A stretch of DNA of 41,833 bases from Promethearchaeota archaeon (GCA_018238625.1 JABCSY010000027.1:1-41833), one strand, 5' to 3'. Positions 22,260 to 32,314 are shown, counted from the stretch's first letter. Numbers and translations: made by a program. The notes: generated by a model not told the origin, from the letters alone.

Positions 22260-24502
22260 TTAAAGGATTTTCTTAAGTTCTAAAATTAAGTTTTTAGGGT
22301 TAATGCCATCGAATTGAAATATTTCTGCTTTTCCGTATTCTTTAAAGTTTCTTTTAATGTTGTCCGCTGCGAAGGTATTTACACCCAACGATTTTGTCGC
22401 GTATGACTTCCGCGGCTCTAAAACGACCATATGTGCTCCTTTCTTGGATAAATTCTTTGTTAATGCTTTTAATTCGTTAATAATTAATGTGTAGTCTGTT
22501 TGAACTTGAGCAATTAAATCAGGAAATTTATAGGAAATGTTAGCTCCGCAATCCGAACAGACGAAAACAACGGGAATCATATTTCTATTCTTTAGTTTTT
22601 CAGTGTTTATAAGCTTTAAGCATTTTATCAACGCTGCGGCCATAGGCGTGTAAGACTTTCCTTTAATCTTTTTCATTTTATTTACAGCAGTTTTAAAGTA
22701 AACCGTAGGTTTCTGAAGAACGATGGCTTCTTTTCCTCGAAAGATGATGAGGCTTATTTTATCCTTTTTCCGGTATCCCTCTCGTTGTAACGATAGAATA
22801 ACATCTGTCATTTGTTTAATTACGTAATGCATCGAAGCGGAACTGTCGAGTACAAAAAATAAAACTAATGGCGCGCGATATTCGTATACTTTGTCCATTA
22901 AATCGTATTTGTCAAATTTTATTGGAAAGTCTATATCCGTTTGATTGTATATAGTATTTTTCAAATAGGTCCTTATCGTTGCGTCAAGAGCTATGCTTTT
23001 AGGTCGATTAATAGGCTGTCGATATGAAACATACCTCCCCTTTTGAGAAGAAGCTATTTTTATGCGCCGCCCAATTCCTCTACCTCCGTAATCAGATATT
23101 TTTCGATCTTTTCGAATATTATCTAGTATCGAAGTCATTTTTTTTTCCATATTGTAAATTAATGGCATCGAACTTAATCCGTTATCAAAGAAATTAAAAT
23201 CTCGCTCTTCAATTTCGGGAATATCTTTTACTTTCCAGCCTCCACCAGGCGTTGGGTTTCTTTTTTTATTATCAGGGTATTTAGGGGGTGGAAGTTTCTG
23301 TTCTTTTGACTCTGGAATGTCAATTTTTCTTGGATCAACAGATTGTCTTTTGAATTCCTTTTGAGGGGTGTCATCGTGCTTTAACGGACCTTCAGTTTCT
23401 CTATTTGGTTGATAAATATTTGGATCCTCGTAAGCTTTTTGTATCTTTCCGTAAACTTCAAAGATTTTCGCTTTAACTTCTTCAGGAGTCATCTCGTAAT
23501 GGAGCGAGCGAATTCTATGTTCAAACACTAATTCCATAGCCGCATTTAAATCTTCTTCAATAACTTCCTTTCGACCGTTTAAAGCAGCGTGAGCTCTCGC
23601 GCATCGTATAAACGTAATATCTGCTCTTTGTGAAAAAATATCCAATTCGCTAACTAATTTAGATACGAATTCGTAAACGGTTGAGGGAATTTGGACTTCC
23701 TTTATAATTTGACGAGCATTCACGATTTTCTTTTTTAAATCTTCTTGTTCTTGCTCGTACTTCTTAATAAAATCCTTTGGGTTATCGTTAAAATCAATAA
23801 CACTCTTAGTTATTTCTGCTCGTAACTTGCTATCTCTAGGTGCTTTTATCTTAACCTCTAATCCAAGACGATCGGCTATCTGCGGTCGGAGCTCTCCCTT
23901 TCCGAATCCTAATTCGATATGAAAGTAGGATCTTCGGGGTTCATGCTTCCGACTAATACAAATCGAGATGGATGAGCAACTGAAATTCCTTCACGTTCTA
24001 TGATGTTAACACCAGAAGCAGCGGAATCTAAAAGCACATCAACAATATGATCTTGTAATAAATTAATCTCATCGACATATAAAATTCCTCGATTTGCTTT
24101 AGCAAGTAAGCCGGGATGAAGACTTCGGATTCCTTCAGTAAGTACTTTATCAATAGACAGTGAACCGCAGACCATATCTTCGGTTACTCCTAATGGTAAG
24201 TCAACGATAGGCATGCTTCTTTTAATTTTTTCCAAAGTTCCATTCTTATGTTTAATACGACACTCATCACACAAATCTTCAATCTCTGAACTTGGTTCGC
24301 ATGAAAATACGCATTCCTTAACCGCATCAAGCTCAGGCATTAGTTCAGCTAAGCTCCTCACAGCAGTCGATTTTCCAGTTCCTTGTTGCCCAGTTAGTAA
24401 TACTCCACTAATTTGAGGGTCAATAACATTTAAAATGAGAGCCATTTTCATTTTATCTTGACCGAGTATTGCTGTAAATGGGAAATTAATCCTTTTTACC
24501 AT
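22260..24502 (-). CDS. ChlI/ChlD-like chelatase-family AAA+ ATPase fused to vWA; predicted spliced CDS join(23932..24502,22260..23899), 736 aa
   Basis: FPFTAILGQ, Walker A GQQGTGKS, PGLLAKANRGILYVDE, NPEEGELRPQIADR (after removing the 32 nt), RAHAALNGR, Pro-rich linker, MIDAS DSSAS. The spliced length of 2211 nt is in frame with no stops. Confidence 0.88.
23900..23931 (-). other. Putative 32-nt bulge-helix-bulge/loop (BHB/BHL) mRNA intron
   Basis: Sense sequence AUCCUACUUUCAUAUCGAAUUAGGAUUCGGAA. Central helix CCGA/UCGG, bulges AG^A and AA^A, intron stem UCCUA/UAGGA, exon-exon pairs CC/GG. Carries an in-frame UAG. Confidence 0.8.
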
Positions 24503-24637: not shown

Positions 24638-25588
24638 TTAGAATTTGTTAGCAATTTCTGCCAATTTTACGCCTAGTTTTTCAACAGTTTCGTCCCATTT
24701 AGACATTATCTCTTTTATTTTCGGAACAATACTTTCTCTTTCTTTATACTCCAAATAATTCGTGAATTCCTTGATATTTTCTATTTTAATAAAAGTTTCA
24801 GCCACAAATTTGCGAATATCTCGAGTCTGAATGTTTAAAACTTCTTCTACTCTACTCGATTCCCCCTTTCTAAGTAACGTAGTTAAATACTCTTCCGTTC
24901 CTTGCAATAACGAATTCAGTTCGTTAACCCTATCGGTTACGAACTTATCGTATGTTTCAAATATGTTGTCTTTAGGGAACATATTAGTAATGTCGATTAC
25001 AAATTTCTGCGTTAATACGACCAATTGCTCCATGCTTTCATATCCTTCAATTTTGTAGTCTGTAGTATGATACGATGCCTGAATTCCTTTGGTAACATCA
25101 TCTAATCTAAATATCTTAAAACCAGGATCGTTTTTCAGCGGTTTCAATGGATCCCCTTTTTTATTAGGAAGCTCTATTTGTCTTACTAACCTATCTGGAT
25201 TAAACACGAGCGATATCGCGAGCGGATTATTGATTTGATAGCTCAATGTCGTTTTGATATCTATGTGGCTCATCATAATTTTGAATCCGGGGTGAGAGTG
25301 CCACCATCCTACTGTAAATTCGTTCCTCGAAAACGCTTCGTCGTCTATAATATATAGTGCTTCGTAATCTTCGTCGCTCCACTTATATTGATCGATAACA
25401 GCGTCTTTATCTAATTTTTGATGCATTATAGGGTAAGCTTTTGTAATAAGGACGTCTTTTCCTTCGTTTTTTCCTATAAAAATGCCTGAAACTTCAAGCC
25501 AATCGTCTTTATCAATGCGTCTATTAGCCTGTCTCACGCAAGCAGCTACTATAGTTAAATAAACATCTTTAGGGATAAGAACTGTCAT
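24638..25588 (-). CDS. MPN/JAMM metalloprotease (Rpn11/CSN5-like) with helical C-terminus
   Basis: LEVSG and VGWWHSHPGFKIMMSHID form a complete E..HxH-x7-S-xx-D motif. Confidence 0.9.
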   Translation of the reverse strand: MTVLIPKDVYLTIVAACVRQANRRIDKDDWLEVSGIFIGKNEGKDVLITKAYPIMHQKLDKDAVIDQYKWSDEDYEALYIIDDEAFSRNEFTVGWWHSHPGFKIMMSHIDIKTTLSYQINNPLAISLVFNPDRLVRQIELPNKKGDPLKPLKNDPGFKIFRLDDVTKGIQASYHTTDYKIEGYESMEQLVVLTQKFVIDITNMFPKDNIFETYDKFVTDRVNELNSLLQGTEEYLTTLLRKGESSRVEEVLNIQTRDIRKFVAETFIKIENIKEFTNYLEYKERESIVPKIKEIMSKWDETVEKLGVKLAEIANKF

Positions 25589-25803
25589 ATTTTAATTATA
25601 AATATATAGTTTTTTGATAACTTTATACTATTACGTGTATTTATGTGTTATTTTTTGAAGAATTTTTTTTATTATAAAAAAACCAAACACCCACAAATAC
25701 TAATTTATATAAATTCAAAAATTATGATTATATTATTACTTTTAATTAAATTAACTGCAATTCCAACTAATTTAAATCGTATAGCAAAGGATAGTTGATT
25801 AAA

Positions 25804-26454
25804 ATGGCAGAAAAAGGATTTGAACCGTTATCGAGTCAGTTAGGGATCCCTGGAACGTCGTACAGAGTCCAATTAGGGCTTATAAACGACAAGTTTGCAA
25901 CTCGTTTGCTAAAAGGAAAGTCTATTATTGACTCATATGTTTTTAAGGATGAAGATATAAGTGAATCTGGTATTCCTAACCAAAATCTTATAGTTGGCTG
26001 GGTGTTGCGAACGGTAGCAATCCCAAATATAAATCCTCATCAAGTCATGAAAACCACCCAAGCTTTGGTAAAGCAAGCTATTGCGAAAAAAGAACAAAAA
26101 AAAGTTGTTGCCCCTGTTTCGGAAACTAGTAAAGTAGAGTTAGAAAAGGTTCCTGAAAGCGAATTAAAAAGACCAAAAGTGACAGGGTGGGTTAAAGAGG
26201 AGGGGATGAAGTCGATCCAAGAACTAGAAGAAGAAAAGCGCCAAGCTTTCCAAGAGAGAATGAAGATAATAAAGGAGGAAAAACGGGCGCAATCGGGCGG
26301 TACTGCTCCATCTATGTTGAGAACTACAAGAAAATTGCCTACGATTCCAAAAGGAGAAGGGGTTTCATCTTCTACATTTTGCCCTAGTTGTGGAAAAGAC
26401 TTGGATTGGAAATATTGTCCCTACTGCGGAAAACCTTTACCATCACCCAATTAA
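25804..26454 (+). CDS. Hypothetical protein with C-terminal double zinc ribbon
   Basis: FCPSCGK..YCPYCGK at the C-terminus; charged, low-complexity middle; globular N-terminus. Confidence 0.8.
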   Translation: MAEKGFEPLSSQLGIPGTSYRVQLGLINDKFATRLLKGKSIIDSYVFKDEDISESGIPNQNLIVGWVLRTVAIPNINPHQVMKTTQALVKQAIAKKEQKKVVAPVSETSKVELEKVPESELKRPKVTGWVKEEGMKSIQELEEEKRQAFQERMKIIKEEKRAQSGGTAPSMLRTTRKLPTIPKGEGVSSSTFCPSCGKDLDWKYCPYCGKPLPSPN

Positions 26455-26672
26455 TGAAATTTTGATTTTATTTTATATTTCCTTATTATAACTACTTCTT
26501 AATTTACATTTTAATACTACTTTTTTGAAATATGTATAATCAATTTTCTAAATTTTCAATTACCAATAAAAAAGATATAAAATTATATTTTATATTAAGT
26601 GTTTAAAATTAAAATGGTTTAAAGTATAAATATAACAAAAATATTTTGTTTAAATAAGTAAAGTGATTGAAA

Positions 26673-28127
26673 ATGGGGAAAGATGTGGATAACAGCGTAG
26701 TAATGATCAAATCTCTCGCGTATTATAAGATGATATTACACGTATTACGTTTTGGAAATAAAGCCCGAAATAATTCTCAATGTATCGAAGTAATGGGAGT
26801 ACTTATTGGACACCTCGAAGATGGCGAAGATAAAAAATTTAAGAATGTCATTATTGAGGATGCCATACCAGTTTCTCATGGGAGCAGCGTAGAAGTAGAA
26901 TTCTCGATTAACGATTATATATTTTTTGAAAAAGCGAATTCCATGTTCTTAGAAAAGAATTGGTTCATGGTTGGCTGGTATCATTCACATCCAAATTTGT
27001 TTCAGCACAAAATTTTCTTTTCACCTACAGACGTTAAAAACCAGTTTGGTTGGCAAAACGAATTGAACCCTAGTGGAATCGCGTTGGTTTTTGATCATGC
27101 TTATTTAGATAAGTCCGACGATCCTGGATTTAGAGCAATTCGATTGACTAATCCATCAAACATTCGAGATTCAAATGTTCACCAAGTTAAGACAATTGTT
27201 GAGACACCAGATAATTTTGACTATTACTTTAAAATTATAGAATTAATAAATAATGTACACTCGAGAGAACCTCCCATCACTGAGGAGAACGAAACGGTGG
27301 GCATATTTGGGGATGTAAAGGTTCCTGAGCTTAGCCAATTGCAGTTTAAGCAGCCAGAAATAAATCCACGTAAAATAGTTGATTCTTTTCAAGTAGGACT
27401 CGCTAATTTTTTGGATTTATCGTTAACTCCTTTAATAAGTTTCCTAAATTCTCTTAGCGTAAATATTTCAGCAAATATAGAAGGTAATAATATAAAAATT
27501 AGAAAAGATTTAACTCTTTTAAAAGAAATGATAAACGCGGGAATTGATAAAATACAGAGGAAATACAAGGACGATTTAAATTCTGAGTTATTCAAGGCGG
27601 AAGGGTATGTAGACGATTTCCTAGACCAAATTGACGGATATCAAGCAGAAATTGCCGAGTTACTAAAAGAGATTAATGTTATCGTTAAAGAAAAAGTTGA
27701 TACGCTATTTAAAGAAAAGTTCGAAGGGGTAATAAATGATTTCTCGAGAGATTTTGATGATTGCCAGAAAAAATTGATAAATTATAATGGTGGTGTGTCT
27801 GTTAATCTTAGTAATTTAGAGAAACTAGAAAAATCATTAAGTTCCTTATCTGAACAAATAAAATCAGTAAAAAATGCCACTCTTGATAAGATAAAAACAA
27901 TGCAAAAAGAAACTTACGATATGACTTCAAAAAAACACAATATAGCATTAAATAACTTGAACAACCTTAATAAAAAGTCGCAAAAATTCTTAACGAATTT
28001 AAAAGCCGCTGTTTTGATTTTGGAGGGGACGAAAGCTCCTATTTTAGAGAAAATTGATAAATTAGAATCTGAAAAAAAACAACTATTACTAAAAATTAAG
28101 AAGCTAGAAGAGGGAGGTAACAAATAA
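26673..28127 (+). CDS. MPN/JAMM domain + long coiled-coil protein
   Basis: IEVMGVLIG and VGWYHSHPNLFQHKIFFSPTD, followed by about 250 aa of heptad-rich helix. Confidence 0.88.
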   Translation: MGKDVDNSVVMIKSLAYYKMILHVLRFGNKARNNSQCIEVMGVLIGHLEDGEDKKFKNVIIEDAIPVSHGSSVEVEFSINDYIFFEKANSMFLEKNWFMVGWYHSHPNLFQHKIFFSPTDVKNQFGWQNELNPSGIALVFDHAYLDKSDDPGFRAIRLTNPSNIRDSNVHQVKTIVETPDNFDYYFKIIELINNVHSREPPITEENETVGIFGDVKVPELSQLQFKQPEINPRKIVDSFQVGLANFLDLSLTPLISFLNSLSVNISANIEGNNIKIRKDLTLLKEMINAGIDKIQRKYKDDLNSELFKAEGYVDDFLDQIDGYQAEIAELLKEINVIVKEKVDTLFKEKFEGVINDFSRDFDDCQKKLINYNGGVSVNLSNLEKLEKSLSSLSEQIKSVKNATLDKIKTMQKETYDMTSKKHNIALNNLNNLNKKSQKFLTNLKAAVLILEGTKAPILEKIDKLESEKKQLLLKIKKLEEGGNK

Positions 28128-28129
28128 AG

Positions 28130-29512
28130 ATGACGGAAAACAATAGAGAAATTAGCGAGAAAGGTAGAGTTTTCATTGAAATGACTCCTTTTAAGGATAT
28201 GTTTACCCATGTATTAAGGTTTGCTAACGTTGTACTAGAATATAACGAACAGGTTCTTGGATTTTGCATTGGAAAAAAGAACCCTGATAACGATAACATT
28301 ACCATAACAAAGATTATTCCAATCACGCATGGAGATGAAGTAGAATTAGGTTTTTCGGAAAAGATTCACAAATCACTTATTCAAATCCAAGAAGAAGCTT
28401 CAAACGAGAATCTTGTAGTCGTAGGATGGTATCACTCGCATCCTGAGGCTGAAACCCTTTTCTTTTCTGAAGTTGATAAAAAAAATCACCTTTATTTTCA
28501 GAACGAAAAATTCAAATATGGATTTGGAATTGTTTTCGACCATTCCAAAATGAAAAAATCAGATAATTTTGGTTTAGAAGTTTTTCGATTAGAAAATTTC
28601 TCAAAAGGAGATAAAAGCGATTATATAAGAGTTAAACACGAAATAGAGGTACCAAACTCTTTAGACTTTTATAAATGGGTTCAGAGATTCGTTGAATATG
28701 GACAAACAAAAAGTCCTATAATAATTAAGGAAAGATTAGAATTAAGAGAACAAGTTCCGCGCGACCTTCAAGAAATTCCGATGTCCACGGAGCAATTGGA
28801 AATGGAAATCGATTTAGAATACCAAGATATTAATCCAGTTGCAGATGGTTTTAAAAAAGGATTACAAAATTTTTCGAACTTAGTTTTAAATGATTACAAA
28901 TCGGAATTAGAAACTTGGTCGTCTGAATTTAACGACGGCGCGTTAAAAGGTCTAAATAAAATTAGTGACTCGCTAGCACAAATGAATTTAACAATAGATA
29001 ATGGTTTTGAAAGAGTAGAAAAATGGATCGAAACGAAGTTTAAAGAAAGAATTAACGAATATAAAGAAAAAGTAGAAGGATACGTAAATAAGCGCCTTTC
29101 AGGACAAGAAAGTTTGAAAGCTAATACAAGCGAAACTAAAGAAATCTTAACGAGCGAGATAAACAAACACTTAGAGCAGAGTATCGATTATATCACTAAG
29201 TCGATTAAAAAAGATCTCAACGAGATTATTAACAAACTATACGAAGTTTCGATGCAAGATGCGAAGATAAAAGAAAGAATTGAAATTTCAACTAAAGAGA
29301 TTTCAAGTTTGACGGAACAAATCCAAAATCTCTCGATTGATATGTTGAAAGGGATAAGTGCGATAAACCACCCTTTCGAAACAAATCTATCTACTAACTA
29401 CGATAAATTAATCACGGAACTTGAACCATTCAAAGACAATTTTGACGAATTTGAGACATTTATTGAGAGGTTGCAAAAGATAATTCCTGATTTTCGCAAT
29501 ATTAAAAAATAG
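28130..29512 (+). CDS. MPN domain + long coiled-coil protein (paralogue; Gln at the canonical catalytic Glu position)
   Basis: EQVLGFCIG and VGWYHSHPEAETLFFSEVD; starts 2 bp after the upstream paralogue, with GGAGGT SD. Confidence 0.88.
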   Translation: MTENNREISEKGRVFIEMTPFKDMFTHVLRFANVVLEYNEQVLGFCIGKKNPDNDNITITKIIPITHGDEVELGFSEKIHKSLIQIQEEASNENLVVVGWYHSHPEAETLFFSEVDKKNHLYFQNEKFKYGFGIVFDHSKMKKSDNFGLEVFRLENFSKGDKSDYIRVKHEIEVPNSLDFYKWVQRFVEYGQTKSPIIIKERLELREQVPRDLQEIPMSTEQLEMEIDLEYQDINPVADGFKKGLQNFSNLVLNDYKSELETWSSEFNDGALKGLNKISDSLAQMNLTIDNGFERVEKWIETKFKERINEYKEKVEGYVNKRLSGQESLKANTSETKEILTSEINKHLEQSIDYITKSIKKDLNEIINKLYEVSMQDAKIKERIEISTKEISSLTEQIQNLSIDMLKGISAINHPFETNLSTNYDKLITELEPFKDNFDEFETFIERLQKIIPDFRNIKK

Positions 29513-29537
29513 TTTTTTCTTCAATATTTTTAGACTA

Positions 29538-29861
29538 CTAAAAATACTTAAGGCTGGAAACTTTCGAAATTTGCAATTTATATTTAGGAATACGAGTAGA
29601 TAATTTTGCTAATTGATTTCTTTTCGCTACTGAGCTTAGTACTCTTCCAATTCGATCCACTTTAATATCTATTGCAAAATTATCTTTTAAAATGGAATTT
29701 ACTTTGTAGGAAGATAGAATAACTACACTGGAAATGTTTTTCTCGCACAACATTTCAATAGCTTGTTTAACTAGCTTTGTTAACGCTTCTTTATCTGGTT
29801 GATGTTGATTTTCCATATGCACTATATTATTATTTTTGAGTCCTTTTAAAATTTTCACCAA
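29538..29861 (-). CDS. Small basic hypothetical protein, possibly winged-helix
   Basis: Helix pattern SSYKVNSILKD..KVDRIGRVLSSVAK; the start may be the internal Met. Confidence 0.55.
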   Translation of the reverse strand: MVKILKGLKNNNIVHMENQHQPDKEALTKLVKQAIEMLCEKNISSVVILSSYKVNSILKDNFAIDIKVDRIGRVLSSVAKRNQLAKLSTRIPKYKLQISKVSSLKYF

Positions 29862-29974: not shown

Positions 29975-32314
29975 ATGAAACTTATAGAAATTATAACAAA
30001 AATTAAGAATACTTTACAACATATTATTCGAAAAATTTTTATTCACGAATTATATGTTGAGGGAAAGGAACCTCAAAAATCGTACTGTTTTGAGAGAAAA
30101 TTTTTTGGATTATATGTTATATTTGTATTATATTCGTTATTACTTTTATTTGGAATAAATTTTCCGGGGTCTTATCTATACATCCTTACCTTTGGAAACC
30201 CGTTTGTTTTTTGTAATGCATTAGTAATTTTTTTCCTTGCATTGTCTTTATTATATAGTGTTGATAAAATTAGAGTTTTCATTTTCGAAGAGTACACAGC
30301 GATTAAACAGGTTGCTTTATATATCGTAATGATGGCTGGTATCTATTTGTTTTCTTTGTTTTTATATTCAATAAATCTTAACTTTATAAGCTATTTATTA
30401 GGATTATCAACGGTGTGGCTTGTTCTATTAAGTATTAGGTTCTTTATGTATTCAAGAAAGTTTGCTACAAAAATCGAAGCCAGACTCATAACAAAGTATT
30501 CGGCATCTCGTGGATTTTTAGCTTTTATCGCTCCATATTTTATATTAGGGGTGCTTGTTACAATATCATTATTTTACCGAGGATTATTAGTTTTCATTTC
30601 ATTAGATTTTTTTGGCCCATTTGCTCCTGAAGAAGCAGTATATGTTTATATTTTAGAAATGCGATTAATCATGCCTCTTATTTATTTCAGTTTAATATTA
30701 ACGCTATTGTTTATCATTTTTGAGTACGTTTTTACAAGACGCCGAGCTGAAACAAGAAGAGCCGGTTTATTTGACAATTATACCTTTTCTTTAATTGTTT
30801 TATTTATTTTTTTCTTTCAAGTATTTCAATTAACTATGTTTCTGGTGTTAAACCCAGCCACTATCACTGCACTAAAGGCTAGAGTTGGCGATACAAGCTC
30901 GACAATATGGGTTATTCTCATTGTTGAGTTTGCCTTCTCAATGTATTTCCTATATAGAATTGTAAAAAAATTGGGGCGTTCTTTAGAATGGAGATTCCTT
31001 ATATTTAAAAGAGATGGGCTAATTTTACTAATTTTAGGGTGCGTTTTTGCGCAAACTCTAACGCGGTTTGCTCTACAAACTCAAATTCCAAATCAAGAGA
31101 TTACACTTCTTGGTCAGTTCTTTATGGCTGATAAATATATTGTTTCTTTAATAATGATAATTTTCCTTGGAAGTACATTGTTATTTTACTATTTAAAACC
31201 ACACGAAACATCTATGTTCATTCGTCTACAGAAAGAAACGGTTAGCCAAGAAGAAAAAAGCAAGGACATTATTTATCAATTGATAAGAAGCGAATACATA
31301 AGAAGAGGTAGAGCTTATCCTCTTGAAATCTTAGATCGGGAGTTAATTAGAACAACAAAACTTCCAAAAAATAAGGTTTACTCAATAGTTGAGAATTTGG
31401 CAAAAATTGACATGGACATTCTTTTGACTGAAAAGAAAGATGAAAATGGGACTATGGTAAAGATAATAGATTTTACTTCCGTTACAGAAGGTTACGATAA
31501 AAAAGGAATCGCTCATAAAAAAGCAAAAAAGTATCTATCAGAAAGGCTCTATACCACTATGACCAAGAAAAAAAGCAGCAATCTTAATTTAAGCACTACT
31601 AACAACAACGATAAAGCTTCGGATCAATTTCTAACTTCCCTTTCCACGGATTATGGCAAGAAACAAAAAGATGAGACGCTTTTTGGGCAAAAACAAAAAG
31701 AAACCATAATTACTTTCACTAAAAAAGAAATCCCTACTTCTTTAAAAAATTTAATTATAGATGTTTTAAAAAAAGAATATTCATACCGAATTGAAAACGA
31801 AGAGAAGTATCCGGATTTCCATTTTAATATATCAGAAATTGCTTCTCAAGTTCAAATAGAAACCCGCATCTCTCCAGGTGAACTCTATCCAATTTTAGAG
31901 AGTATTAACGGATCAGATTTAGAATTTAGTTTATTTGAAAATCCAGAAGAACCAGAAGATAAAAAGGTTAGCTTTTTCCCGGTCGCAGACGACGATTTAA
32001 GTTATTCACTTGCAAATTTCAGACCTGAAGAATACAAAAAAGTTAGAAGTAAGGTACTAAAGAATTACATGAAATTTCTAAAAAGAAAGAAAGCAAGAGC
32101 TATTTTTTCTAGGCTTAGGAAAGAAATTGGTAATAAAACAGAAGAGCAACAAGTTTGGAACACACTATATAAAATTTTGAATAATCATTACCCTTTACAT
32201 CTAGCTGTACTTGAAAGAGTAAAATTAGGGGAAGATTTGCCAAAAGTTATCAAAGTTTTTCCTAAAAAGGATATTAATGTATTTAGTATTGAATCTAAAG
32301 CTAAAGCTAAATAG
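29975..32314 (+). CDS. Large membrane protein (about 11 TM) with cytoplasmic C-terminal region containing two wHTH-like units
   Basis: Hydrophobic first 410 aa or so; similar units IIYQLIRSEY..LPKNKVYSIVENL and LIIDVLKKEY..ISPGELYPILESI. Confidence 0.7.
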   Translation: MKLIEIITKIKNTLQHIIRKIFIHELYVEGKEPQKSYCFERKFFGLYVIFVLYSLLLLFGINFPGSYLYILTFGNPFVFCNALVIFFLALSLLYSVDKIRVFIFEEYTAIKQVALYIVMMAGIYLFSLFLYSINLNFISYLLGLSTVWLVLLSIRFFMYSRKFATKIEARLITKYSASRGFLAFIAPYFILGVLVTISLFYRGLLVFISLDFFGPFAPEEAVYVYILEMRLIMPLIYFSLILTLLFIIFEYVFTRRRAETRRAGLFDNYTFSLIVLFIFFFQVFQLTMFLVLNPATITALKARVGDTSSTIWVILIVEFAFSMYFLYRIVKKLGRSLEWRFLIFKRDGLILLILGCVFAQTLTRFALQTQIPNQEITLLGQFFMADKYIVSLIMIIFLGSTLLFYYLKPHETSMFIRLQKETVSQEEKSKDIIYQLIRSEYIRRGRAYPLEILDRELIRTTKLPKNKVYSIVENLAKIDMDILLTEKKDENGTMVKIIDFTSVTEGYDKKGIAHKKAKKYLSERLYTTMTKKKSSNLNLSTTNNNDKASDQFLTSLSTDYGKKQKDETLFGQKQKETIITFTKKEIPTSLKNLIIDVLKKEYSYRIENEEKYPDFHFNISEIASQVQIETRISPGELYPILESINGSDLEFSLFENPEEPEDKKVSFFPVADDDLSYSLANFRPEEYKKVRSKVLKNYMKFLKRKKARAIFSRLRKEIGNKTEEQQVWNTLYKILNNHYPLHLAVLERVKLGEDLPKVIKVFPKKDINVFSIESKAKAK

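Follow-up and report, generated by a model that had tools for sequence, protein, structure and literature searches.

Whether two abutting genes for MPN domain proteins in an archaeon encode separate enzymes, or the two chains of a single one, is the question raised by a contig of 41,833 nt from a Promethearchaeota archaeon (GCA_018238625.1 JABCSY010000027.1:1-41833; this whole stretch is called the window below). The contig carries three MPN/JAMM genes, A (24638-25588, minus strand), B (26673-28127, plus strand) and C (28130-29512, plus strand), of which the last two are the pair in question. Eukaryotic JAMM deubiquitinases, as found in the proteasome lid, the signalosome, BRISC and BRCA1-A, work as an enzyme joined to a dead paralogue, and the origin of such obligate pairs is usually inferred from end states more than 1 billion years old. 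The analysis favours, as a probable explanation that is well short of certain, a heterodimeric MPN+/MPN- isopeptidase on a fixed-length two-chain stalk, in which catalysis falls to B, and C is a twin in decay with a structural or allosteric role. The host is a Loki-type Asgard archaeon, and the window is contig C82 of an assembly of 4.29 Mb in 201 contigs (97.9% complete, 7.6% contamination).

Two Abutting MPN Paralogues with Long Helical Stalks

All three proteins exceed the curated cut-off (22.5 bits) of the Pfam JAB/MPN profile PF01398, with 52.3 bits for A (E-value 6e-14), 51.5 for B (1.1e-13) and 42.1 for C (8.9e-11), and are members of that family. B and C also exceed the cut-off of UPF0172, a related MPN-fold family, at lower scores; NCBIfam profiles match A, B, C and their neighbours only below threshold. 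B, the MPN+ partner, has 484 aa when read from the ATG at 26673 or 486 aa from a TTG at 26667. Its Glu41 (26787-26789) lies in CIEVMG and is followed by His106-Ser-His108 (26982-26990) and Ser119..Asp122 (27021-27032), as read from the translation and the alignment, with a ten-residue spacer (x10) that an FQH insert makes three residues longer than the canonical one. This insert is present in 14 of 48 B orthologues, all of them near relatives, and the other 34 have x7. In C (460 aa) a linker joins the MPN head to a helical stalk of about 228 aa. Its translation places Gln41 (28250-28252), within NEQVLG, in the column of the catalytic Glu, and retains His102-Ser-His104 (28433-28441) and, after x8, Ser113..Asp116 (28466-28477). 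The MPN+ motif (E ... HxHx7Sx2D) is present in A and, with x10, in B, and is absent from C of the window (Gln41, x8).

B and C share 29% identity over 416 residues, tails included (E-value 3e-33), and are full-length paralogues. Behind the MPN domain each carries a helix, at residues 180-200 of B (ETPDNFDYYFKIIELINNVH, 27204-27266) and at residues 174-198 of C (including EVPNSLDFYKWVQRFV, 28649-28723), which is discussed below as the predicted core of the dimer interface. AlphaFold2 (AF2), run for B on a 31-row alignment (mean predicted local distance difference test, pLDDT, 72.7), gives an MPN head at residues 1-200 (pLDDT mostly 70-90, falling below 50 at residues 112-114, in the region of the spacer insert), a low-confidence linker at 200-245 and then one unbroken helix at 246-485. 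This amphipathic stalk of about 240 residues (27402-28121) is predicted by both AF2 and co-folding. In Foldseek the B model matches chains of CSN5, BRCC36, Rpn11, CSN6 and Rpn8 (E-values 4e-9 to 1e-7), which gives B the MPN fold. The best sequence match in the PDB is Caldiarchaeum Rpn11 for B (6fju, 1.6e-7), with yeast Rpn11 also matched, and zebrafish BRCC36 for C (4.8e-5).

Hydrophobic residues recur with a period of 3.62-3.70 residues in B 246-485, C 232-458 and A 205-316. For the tails of B and C the period is 3.62-3.64 (B 3.62), with a family-averaged power of 20-21 against 8.7 for the 99th percentile of shuffled sequences and almost no power at exactly 3.50 residues. This suggests that the pairing is nearly untwisted or mixes heptads with hendecads, and is not a coiled coil of heptads alone. 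The whole range of 3.62-3.70 residues lies nearer to hendecad or untwisted packing, or to amphipathic helices of apolipoprotein type, than to the classical heptad, and weak Pfam matches of the tails to ApoLp-III and ApoA1 may reflect it. Tail length is nearly constant, at 241 aa in 35 of 46 B orthologues and 225-229 aa in all 46 of C; with column conservation of about 0.5, length is held far more tightly than sequence. The tip of the stalk is better conserved than its middle.

The stop codon of B ends at 28127 and the ATG of C begins at 28130, with 2 nt between them. A Shine-Dalgarno-like run, GAGGGAGGT (28110-28118, plus strand), lies in the 3' end of B, 11 nt before the ATG, and a T6 run directly after the stop codon of C (29513-29518, plus strand) is a candidate archaeal transcription stop. 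There is no T-run between B and C; T-runs and an AT-rich stretch containing TATAAATA lie between B and the zinc-ribbon gene that precedes it. Because of the 2-nt gap, the purine-rich run before the ATG and the T-run after C, the two genes are probably a bicistron read from one transcript, in which GAGGGAGGT is a candidate signal for the coupled translation of C. A contig from a sequencing run taken for RNA spans the B/C junction, but that run is probably of DNA and therefore carries no information on transcripts.

A sequence-only reading of the window had described much of this layout: three MPN paralogues within 5 kb, a catalytic Glu with a longer HSH-to-SxxD spacer in 26673-28127, a Gln at the Glu position with HSH..SxxD kept in 28130-29512, a distance of 2 bp between the two genes, a motif common to both after the MPN domain, and coiled coils of about 250 aa. 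The open reading frames (ORFs) and active-site residues are as described, the common motif is real and falls within the post-MPN helix (B 184-199), and the coiled coils stand as long amphipathic helices.

Catalytic Constraint Acts on One Partner Only

The loci compared comprise 37 from the window's own Lokiarchaeial family (the family, below), the sister-family locus L049 and 11 near-relative loci from named records. The five catalytic columns (Glu, His, His, Ser, Asp) were read in MAFFT alignments of orthologues that reach at least 85% of the query length; L007 and L012 are identical in both B and C, which makes one row of each alignment a duplicate. In B the set E-H-H-S-D is intact in all 48 readable rows, the 49th (L045) being broken, on a 3.5-kb contig with in-frame stops, and E41, H106, S107, H108, S119 and D122 are invariant. 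In C the set is intact in 9 of 47 rows. The 38 variant rows read QHHSD (14 rows), EHRSD (6), EHHTD (4), ESHSE, EVHTD and EIHND (2 each) and, once each, QHHAD, ESHSA, ELRTT, EIHTD, QCHTD, EIHRD, KLHTD and EIHVD. The lesions are thus of many kinds and spread over all five positions, with the Asp kept in 43 of the 47 rows. Catalytic constraint on one partner only, which is a feature of the MPN+/MPN- class, is therefore found here. Judged by its residues, C of the window stands at the mild or early end of the decay series, with its zinc ligands kept and the general base alone lost.

A quick IQ-TREE phylogeny of 62 rows, in which the orthologues were chosen as non-redundant (for C 23 of 47, for B 23 of 49 and in addition L049, for A 10 of 32) and joined by 5 other paralogues, without eukaryotic sequences, shows how these changes are distributed. 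The five columns require at least 3+7+2+7+3 changes, that is at least 22, among the 23 C rows and none among the 24 rows labelled B, L049 included. A large number of independent losses of the whole site is not claimed. Parsimony on an intact-or-not coding needs only 3 changes, and for this reason the argument for decay rests on the counts per column and on the variety of the lesions. Over the same 22 loci the C subtree is 1.4 times longer than that of B (15.0 vs 10.5). B and C are sister clades among the six MPN paralogues of the genome (support 85, with 98 for the C clade), and their trees show the same subclades. The single copy at L049 groups with B (97) and not outside B and C together, which could reflect an older duplication followed by loss of C, or a fast-evolving C clade that has been pulled outward.

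The sequence-only reading had also allowed for the adjacent Glu40 of C to substitute for Gln41. An acidic residue precedes the Gln in 14 of the 16 Gln-bearing C rows, and all 14 belong to one close clade; the Gln-bearing rows outside this clade (L024 and L045) do not have it, and the idea finds no support.

The contrast between B and C also bears on whether the pair is an enzyme at all. B and C might instead form a non-catalytic coiled-coil tether, filament or scaffold, with MPN heads that are mere protein-binding modules, as in eIF3f/h or Prp8. The near-constant length of the rod and its better conserved tip agree with such a device, as do weak resemblances of the tails to apolipoprotein, ATG17 and SMC-like helical proteins in Pfam and NCBIfam, all far below the cut-offs. 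The five catalytic residues of B, however, are invariant while the rest of the protein falls to 31% identity, which is hard to explain without catalysis. The filament that the sequence-only reading had offered as an alternative finds no support either, as no repeat or assembly feature of the filament kind is seen. A purely structural role is very improbable.

Distribution and Linkage of the Pair

In 201 genomes sampled from the phylum and searched with C as query, full-length C-type matches are found in 39 of the 40 genomes of the family (8 genera). Outside the family there is one full-length relative, in 1 of 3 sister-family genomes, and elsewhere matches are confined to the MPN domain. In each of the 37 family loci the gene immediately upstream of C, and on its strand, is B, so that the linkage which the sequence-only reading had named as a check is kept throughout the family. 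The distance from the stop codon of B to the start codon of C is between -8 and +12 nt in 36 of these loci and 6046 nt in one (L038).

The pair is part of a larger block, syntenic in most family loci, that runs through genes for a Roadblock protein, an ATP-grasp protein, a ChlI-VWA protein, A, a zinc-ribbon protein, B, C, a 107-aa protein, a 779-aa membrane protein and a major facilitator superfamily (MFS) transporter. B still abuts C in the loci that lack A (L025 and L040-42) and in one that lacks all of the usual neighbours (L015). The sister-family locus L049 has one B-like gene, of 456 aa, without C and without the neighbours of the block. Insertions are seen at several points of the block: about 6 kb between B and C in L038 (G144:C10), about 4 kb between the zinc-ribbon gene and B in L035, and about 4 kb between a ChlI piece and A in L001 (935-4943).

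A Predicted Heterodimer with a Four-Helix Joint

Full-length B was co-folded with full-length C, each with its own alignment (31 and 34 rows), and three controls were run in which unrelated proteins took the place of the partner (two controls) or B was replaced (one control). The interface score (ipSAE, interaction prediction score from aligned errors) for B with C is 0.65, 0.62 and 0.62 (median 0.62), against 0.00 for the best of the three controls. In calibration, 116 of 157 solved complexes score at or above the mark of 0.62, as do 2 of 215 mismatched pairs. At least 66% of the contacts recur between the runs, and the pLDDT of the partner is at least 64. The co-folded models thus predict that B and C bind each other.

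In the head, the predicted contacts involve the α1 helices (B 19-34, C 21-36) and the post-MPN helices (B 180-200, C 174-198). In the stalk they form a parallel, in-register run that pairs B 271-445 with C 271-444. The contacts of lowest error are made by B 180-191 and 193-200, for instance B190-C183 at 2.2 Å, and on the side of C the interface residues of the post-MPN helix are 174-178, 180-185 and 187-193. Structure prediction of the heterodimer was another check that the sequence-only reading had named, and the interface which it returns includes the motif common to both proteins. In C, conservation is higher at head-interface positions than elsewhere in the head (0.69 vs 0.60; one-sided Mann-Whitney p 0.004), and the head of B is uniformly conserved (0.73 for the interface and 0.73 for the rest). 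This pattern fits a C protein retained because of its interface, and not because of its active site.

A number of observations weigh against a heterodimer of an active B and an inactive C. The co-fold score is a measure of model confidence, and the pair may owe it in part to MPN heterodimers that are already solved; close cousins of a true partner also pass, and B with B or C with C may score equally well. Contact positions in the tails are more conserved than other tail positions, and homodimers would show the same. The stalks show no charge complementarity, the C tail being more acidic than that of B in only 26 of 46 pairs. The JAMM motif is complete in 9 of the 47 C rows, and in those species C may be an active enzyme; C of the window itself keeps all its zinc ligands, the change of Glu to Gln being its sole lesion. 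Conserved adjacency is by itself weak evidence, because the whole 10-gene neighbourhood is syntenic across the family. One family genome that is 99% complete (G138) has, with C as query, no B- or C-type match and only an MPN-level one. Finally, no gene of the ubiquitin system adjoins the pair, which makes the substrate a guess.

Many of these observations would be expected if B and C were independent enzymes, that is tandem duplicates each forming a homodimeric coiled coil with its own substrates, with C on its way, in some lineages, to being lost or to acquiring another specificity, and adjacency reflecting only the duplication and the general synteny. The intact and nearly intact C proteins, the syntenic neighbourhood, the promiscuity of the co-fold towards close cousins and the lack of charge complementarity all agree with this explanation, as does Caldiarchaeum Rpn11 (CsRpn11), which the available parts of one report describe as a monomer in solution and an H1/H4 homodimer in the crystal (PMC6043591). 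It accounts poorly for the history of C, however. The ORF of C is intact, at 441-471 aa, in all complete family copies despite catalytic losses of many kinds, and therefore something besides catalysis is under selection. The interface residues of C are more conserved than the rest of its head, the gap between the genes stays within -8 to +12 nt in 36 of 37 loci though distant C orthologues are only 26-40% identical, and the trees of B and C show the same subclades. Independent enzymes are for these reasons an unlikely explanation. The heterodimer of an active and an inactive MPN protein, which the sequence-only reading had proposed for this Asgard archaeon, is in turn supported by four independent computational lines, namely the close spacing (36/37), the contrast in catalytic residues (B 48/48, C 9/47), the co-fold score (0.62) and the conservation of the C interface.

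Proposed Mechanism and Substrate

In the heterodimeric model B and C would be made from one transcript and would dimerise side by side, with α1 and the post-MPN helix of each chain forming a four-helix joint between the heads. The helices of about 230-240 residues would pair in parallel and in register into a rod about 26-35 nm long. The zinc site of B (Glu41, His106, His108, Ser119 and Asp122) would cleave an isopeptide or peptide bond, most likely the bond that follows the C-terminal Gly in a ubiquitin-like protein, because the genome has several such proteins together with E1 and E2 enzymes. C would be freed from its role as an enzyme and retained to support B structurally or allosterically, in the way that Abraxas/KIAA0157 supports BRCC36 and Rpn8 supports Rpn11. 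The rod would probably act as a spacer or an anchor that sets the head at a fixed distance from something else, because conservation is far stronger for its length than for its sequence, and stronger at its tip than in its middle. What we infer from the evidence above is that B and C form a heterodimer in vivo, that B is catalytic, that its substrate is ubiquitin-like, and that C and the rod have the roles described.

A more specific form of this model makes the pair a deubiquitinase that evolved convergently as an enzyme with its dying twin, and the rod a molecular ruler whose conserved tip binds an anchor, such as a membrane, the cytoskeleton or a large complex, and which keeps the head about 30 nm away from it. 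This reading is doubtful, though not negligible; were it true, ubiquitin-like tags would be removed only at certain places in the cell, and this in an organism related to the ancestor of eukaryotes.

The ubiquitin-like proteins of this archaeon are encoded away from the window. A whole-genome profile search for ubiquitin, E2 and E1 (PF00240, PF00179 and PF00899) finds none on contig C82, and the sequence-only reading was right that the window has no such gene. Elsewhere in the genome there are 4 ubiquitin-family matches, 3 E2 matches over the cut-off and several E1-like genes. Six MPN genes are present in all, namely A, B, C and one copy each on contigs C50, C63 and C97. The C50 copy (262 aa, Rpn11-like) adjoins genes for ubiquitin-like, E1 and E2 proteins in what is the canonical Asgard ubiquitin operon (C50:14644-19939). 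This operon contains two ubiquitin-like genes whose products have acidic N-terminal extensions and end in AG and AGYF, together with the E1, the E2 and the 262-aa Rpn11-like MPN gene. A separate ubiquitin-like gene of 83 aa, ending in GG, is found at C7:33220-33471, and further E2 matches are on contigs C185 and C91.

The heterodimer might also be a JAMM peptidase that acts on something other than a ubiquitin-like conjugate, for instance a different isopeptide, a peptide tag or one of the proteins encoded in the conserved neighbourhood. The contig without a ubiquitin, E1 or E2 gene agrees with this, as does the operon on C50, which has an Rpn11-like MPN gene of its own, and the conserved neighbours encoding the zinc-ribbon and 779-aa membrane proteins offer candidate substrates. 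Against it, the closest sequence and fold matches of these proteins (Rpn11, CSN5, BRCC36 and AMSH) are all specific for ubiquitin or Nedd8, the genome has more ubiquitin-like and E2 genes than those of the C50 operon alone, and the conservation of the neighbourhood is general across the block and singles out no partner. A substrate of another kind is thus distinctly unlikely, and a ubiquitin-like substrate for B-C is plausible.

Relation to Known MPN Systems

The design closest to B-C is, on the best reading, that of BRCC36 with Abraxas or KIAA0157, the core of BRCA1-A and BRISC. According to the available parts of one report, both subunits of BRCC36-KIAA0157 consist of an MPN domain followed by helices that form a coiled-coil bundle, and the contact between the MPN domains is centred on the α1 helices; the pseudo-deubiquitinase KIAA0157 shows His to Cys, His to Arg, Glu to Asn and Ser to Thr, with the Asp retained (PMC4579573). 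B-C would likewise combine an MPN+ enzyme with an MPN- partner resembling a paralogue; it has post-MPN helices and is predicted by co-folding to make its contacts through α1, the post-MPN helix and the stalk. Lesions like those of KIAA0157 recur among the C orthologues, with His to Arg in the 6 EHRSD rows and in ELRTT, His to Cys, Ser to Thr and the Asp kept in 43 of 47, and chains of BRCC36 rank near the top in both the sequence and the fold searches with the MPN proteins of the window. The bundle of BRCC36 is made of two helices, whereas the stalk of B-C is far longer, at about 230-240 residues. B and C are also, unlike BRCC36 and Abraxas, each other's closest relatives within one archaeal family, in a tree without eukaryotic sequences, and several C orthologues are intact, which makes the decay recent and ongoing. 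No counterpart of the super-dimer or of BRCC45, MERIT40, RAP80 or SHMT2 came to light, though no search was aimed at them.

Rpn11-Rpn8 and CSN5-CSN6 are likewise heterodimers of an active and an inactive MPN protein with C-terminal helices, and in the PDB Rpn11 is the best sequence match of B and CSN5 that of A, both being top fold matches as well. Their dimer geometry is reported, in the same available parts, as distinct from the α1-centred type of BRCC36 (PMC4579573). Both pairs sit in lids of PCI-domain subunits, in which their C-terminal helices join a multi-subunit bundle, whereas B-C is predicted to form a two-chain rod. None of the 10 ORFs scanned between 20222 and 32314 matches the PCI domain, and all genome matches to its profile, PF01399, are on contigs other than C82; B-C would not be a lid-type assembly, because its contig has no PCI-domain gene.

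The Rpn11-like JAMM proteins of archaeal operons (CsRpn11 and those of the Asgard ubiquitin operons) belong to the same domain family as B-C. CsRpn11 is short and works alone, whereas B-C is a long-stalked abutting pair with a decaying member, outside the ubiquitin operon. The parts available of the report on CsRpn11 place the Asgard JAMM proteins in clusters between Rpn11, BRCC36 and AMSH (PMC6043591), and a Jab1/MPN gene is mentioned for a Borrarchaeia ubiquitin cluster in the accessible portion of a preprint (10.1101/2023.07.25.550441). A search of the full-text literature, in which few subscription journals are covered, returned no publication that describes an MPN+/MPN- pair from archaea or MPN proteins with stalks from the Asgard group. 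The terms MPN, JAMM, BRCC36, Rpn11 and CSN5 do not occur in the accessible text of a 2026 preprint on structural clustering (PMC13734099).

Likeness of design is one matter and descent another, and the parallel to the eukaryotic pairs drawn in the sequence-only reading holds for the first alone. B-C is probably not orthologous to any specific eukaryotic pair, as judged from a tree without eukaryotic sequences, because B and C are sister clades with a common stalk, are confined to one family with a single copy in the sister family, and include several intact C proteins. The pair most likely arose by a duplication of its own.

Gene A and the Conserved Neighbourhood

Gene A (316 aa, divergent from the zinc-ribbon gene) encodes an MPN+ protein with a helical tail of about 110 aa. 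Its translation has the Glu in WLEVSG and the HSHx7SxxD spacing, and so carries the canonical JAMM motif that the sequence-only reading had assigned to 24638-25588. The catalytic set is intact in 31 of 32 A rows, the remaining one reading EHHTD. The best PDB sequence match of A is CSN5 (E-value 1e-9), its alignment with B and C is limited to the MPN domain, and it forms a clade of its own in the quick tree (support 99). On its sequence A is a more distant, separate MPN+ paralogue with an intact site, predicted to be active and outside the B-C pair. A-type proteins are nearer to the MPN paralogues on C63 and C97 than to B or C. The first of these (C63:38661-40223, minus strand) is a long MPN+ protein of 520 aa with a long C-terminal extension, and the second (C97:24353-25609, plus strand) an MPN+ protein of 418 aa with an N-terminal extension and a charged tail. 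In most family genomes the MPN matches include a third one, whose open frame of about 510-570 aa is comparable in size to the C63 gene.

The zinc-ribbon gene (25804-26454, plus strand), which adjoins B in most family loci, encodes about 216 aa from the ATG at 25804; the longest ORF starts at a TTG at 25795. The protein has an N-terminal β+α domain, a charged linker and a C-terminal CPxCG..CPYCG ribbon, for which Pfam zinc-ribbon matches are weak and below the cut-off. With 57% mean column identity over a 28-row alignment it is better conserved than B or C, and AF2 gives pLDDT 88-90 over residues ~10-100. This N-terminal domain of about 100 aa consists of three long β-strands and a short one followed by two helices, contains the invariant IPNINPHQ.MKT, and the protein has the further conserved motifs VPE..LKRP..GW and LP.IP. 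The best Foldseek match to its fold in the PDB has an E-value of 0.13, an Atlas search returned only its own cluster, and the best hit of a wide VIA-align search (Z 6.1, a de novo design) is under the noise level of 7-8.

Two genes lie 3' of C in nearly all family loci. The first (29538-29861, minus strand) encodes the 107-aa protein, which has a weak match to DUF5797 below the cut-off. The second (29975-32314, plus strand) encodes the 779-aa protein, whose N-terminal half looks rich in hydrophobic stretches by eye and to which no Pfam or NCBIfam family was matched.

Upstream of A, the gene for a ChlI/MoxR-AAA and VWA protein (22260-24502, minus strand) is split into ORFs of 197 aa and 487 aa. 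The split is caused by a 32-nt insert (23900-23931) directly after the GSMNPE codons, and removal of the 32 nt mends the frame; in 26 of 29 related loci the gene is a single ORF of about 735 aa without the insert. The insert is found at the identical codon in a near relative (L001) and in a much more distant species of the same genus (L024). It is unique in the genome and folds with its flanks into a hairpin (-19 to -24 kcal/mol). It is a candidate for an mRNA mini-intron of the bulge-helix-bulge type or for a conserved programmed split.

Implications

The predicted enzyme would add a stalked and probably localised isopeptidase to the thinly characterised ubiquitin-like systems of the Asgard archaea. 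Beyond this, one Asgard family appears to hold, in living genomes, all stages of the pairing of an enzyme with a pseudo-enzyme: a single copy in the sister family, pairs with both members intact, pairs in which the general base alone is lost, as in the window, and pairs in which zinc ligands are lost. The main value of the locus is this natural series, through which the origin of enzyme and pseudo-enzyme partners becomes testable by the comparison of orthologues.

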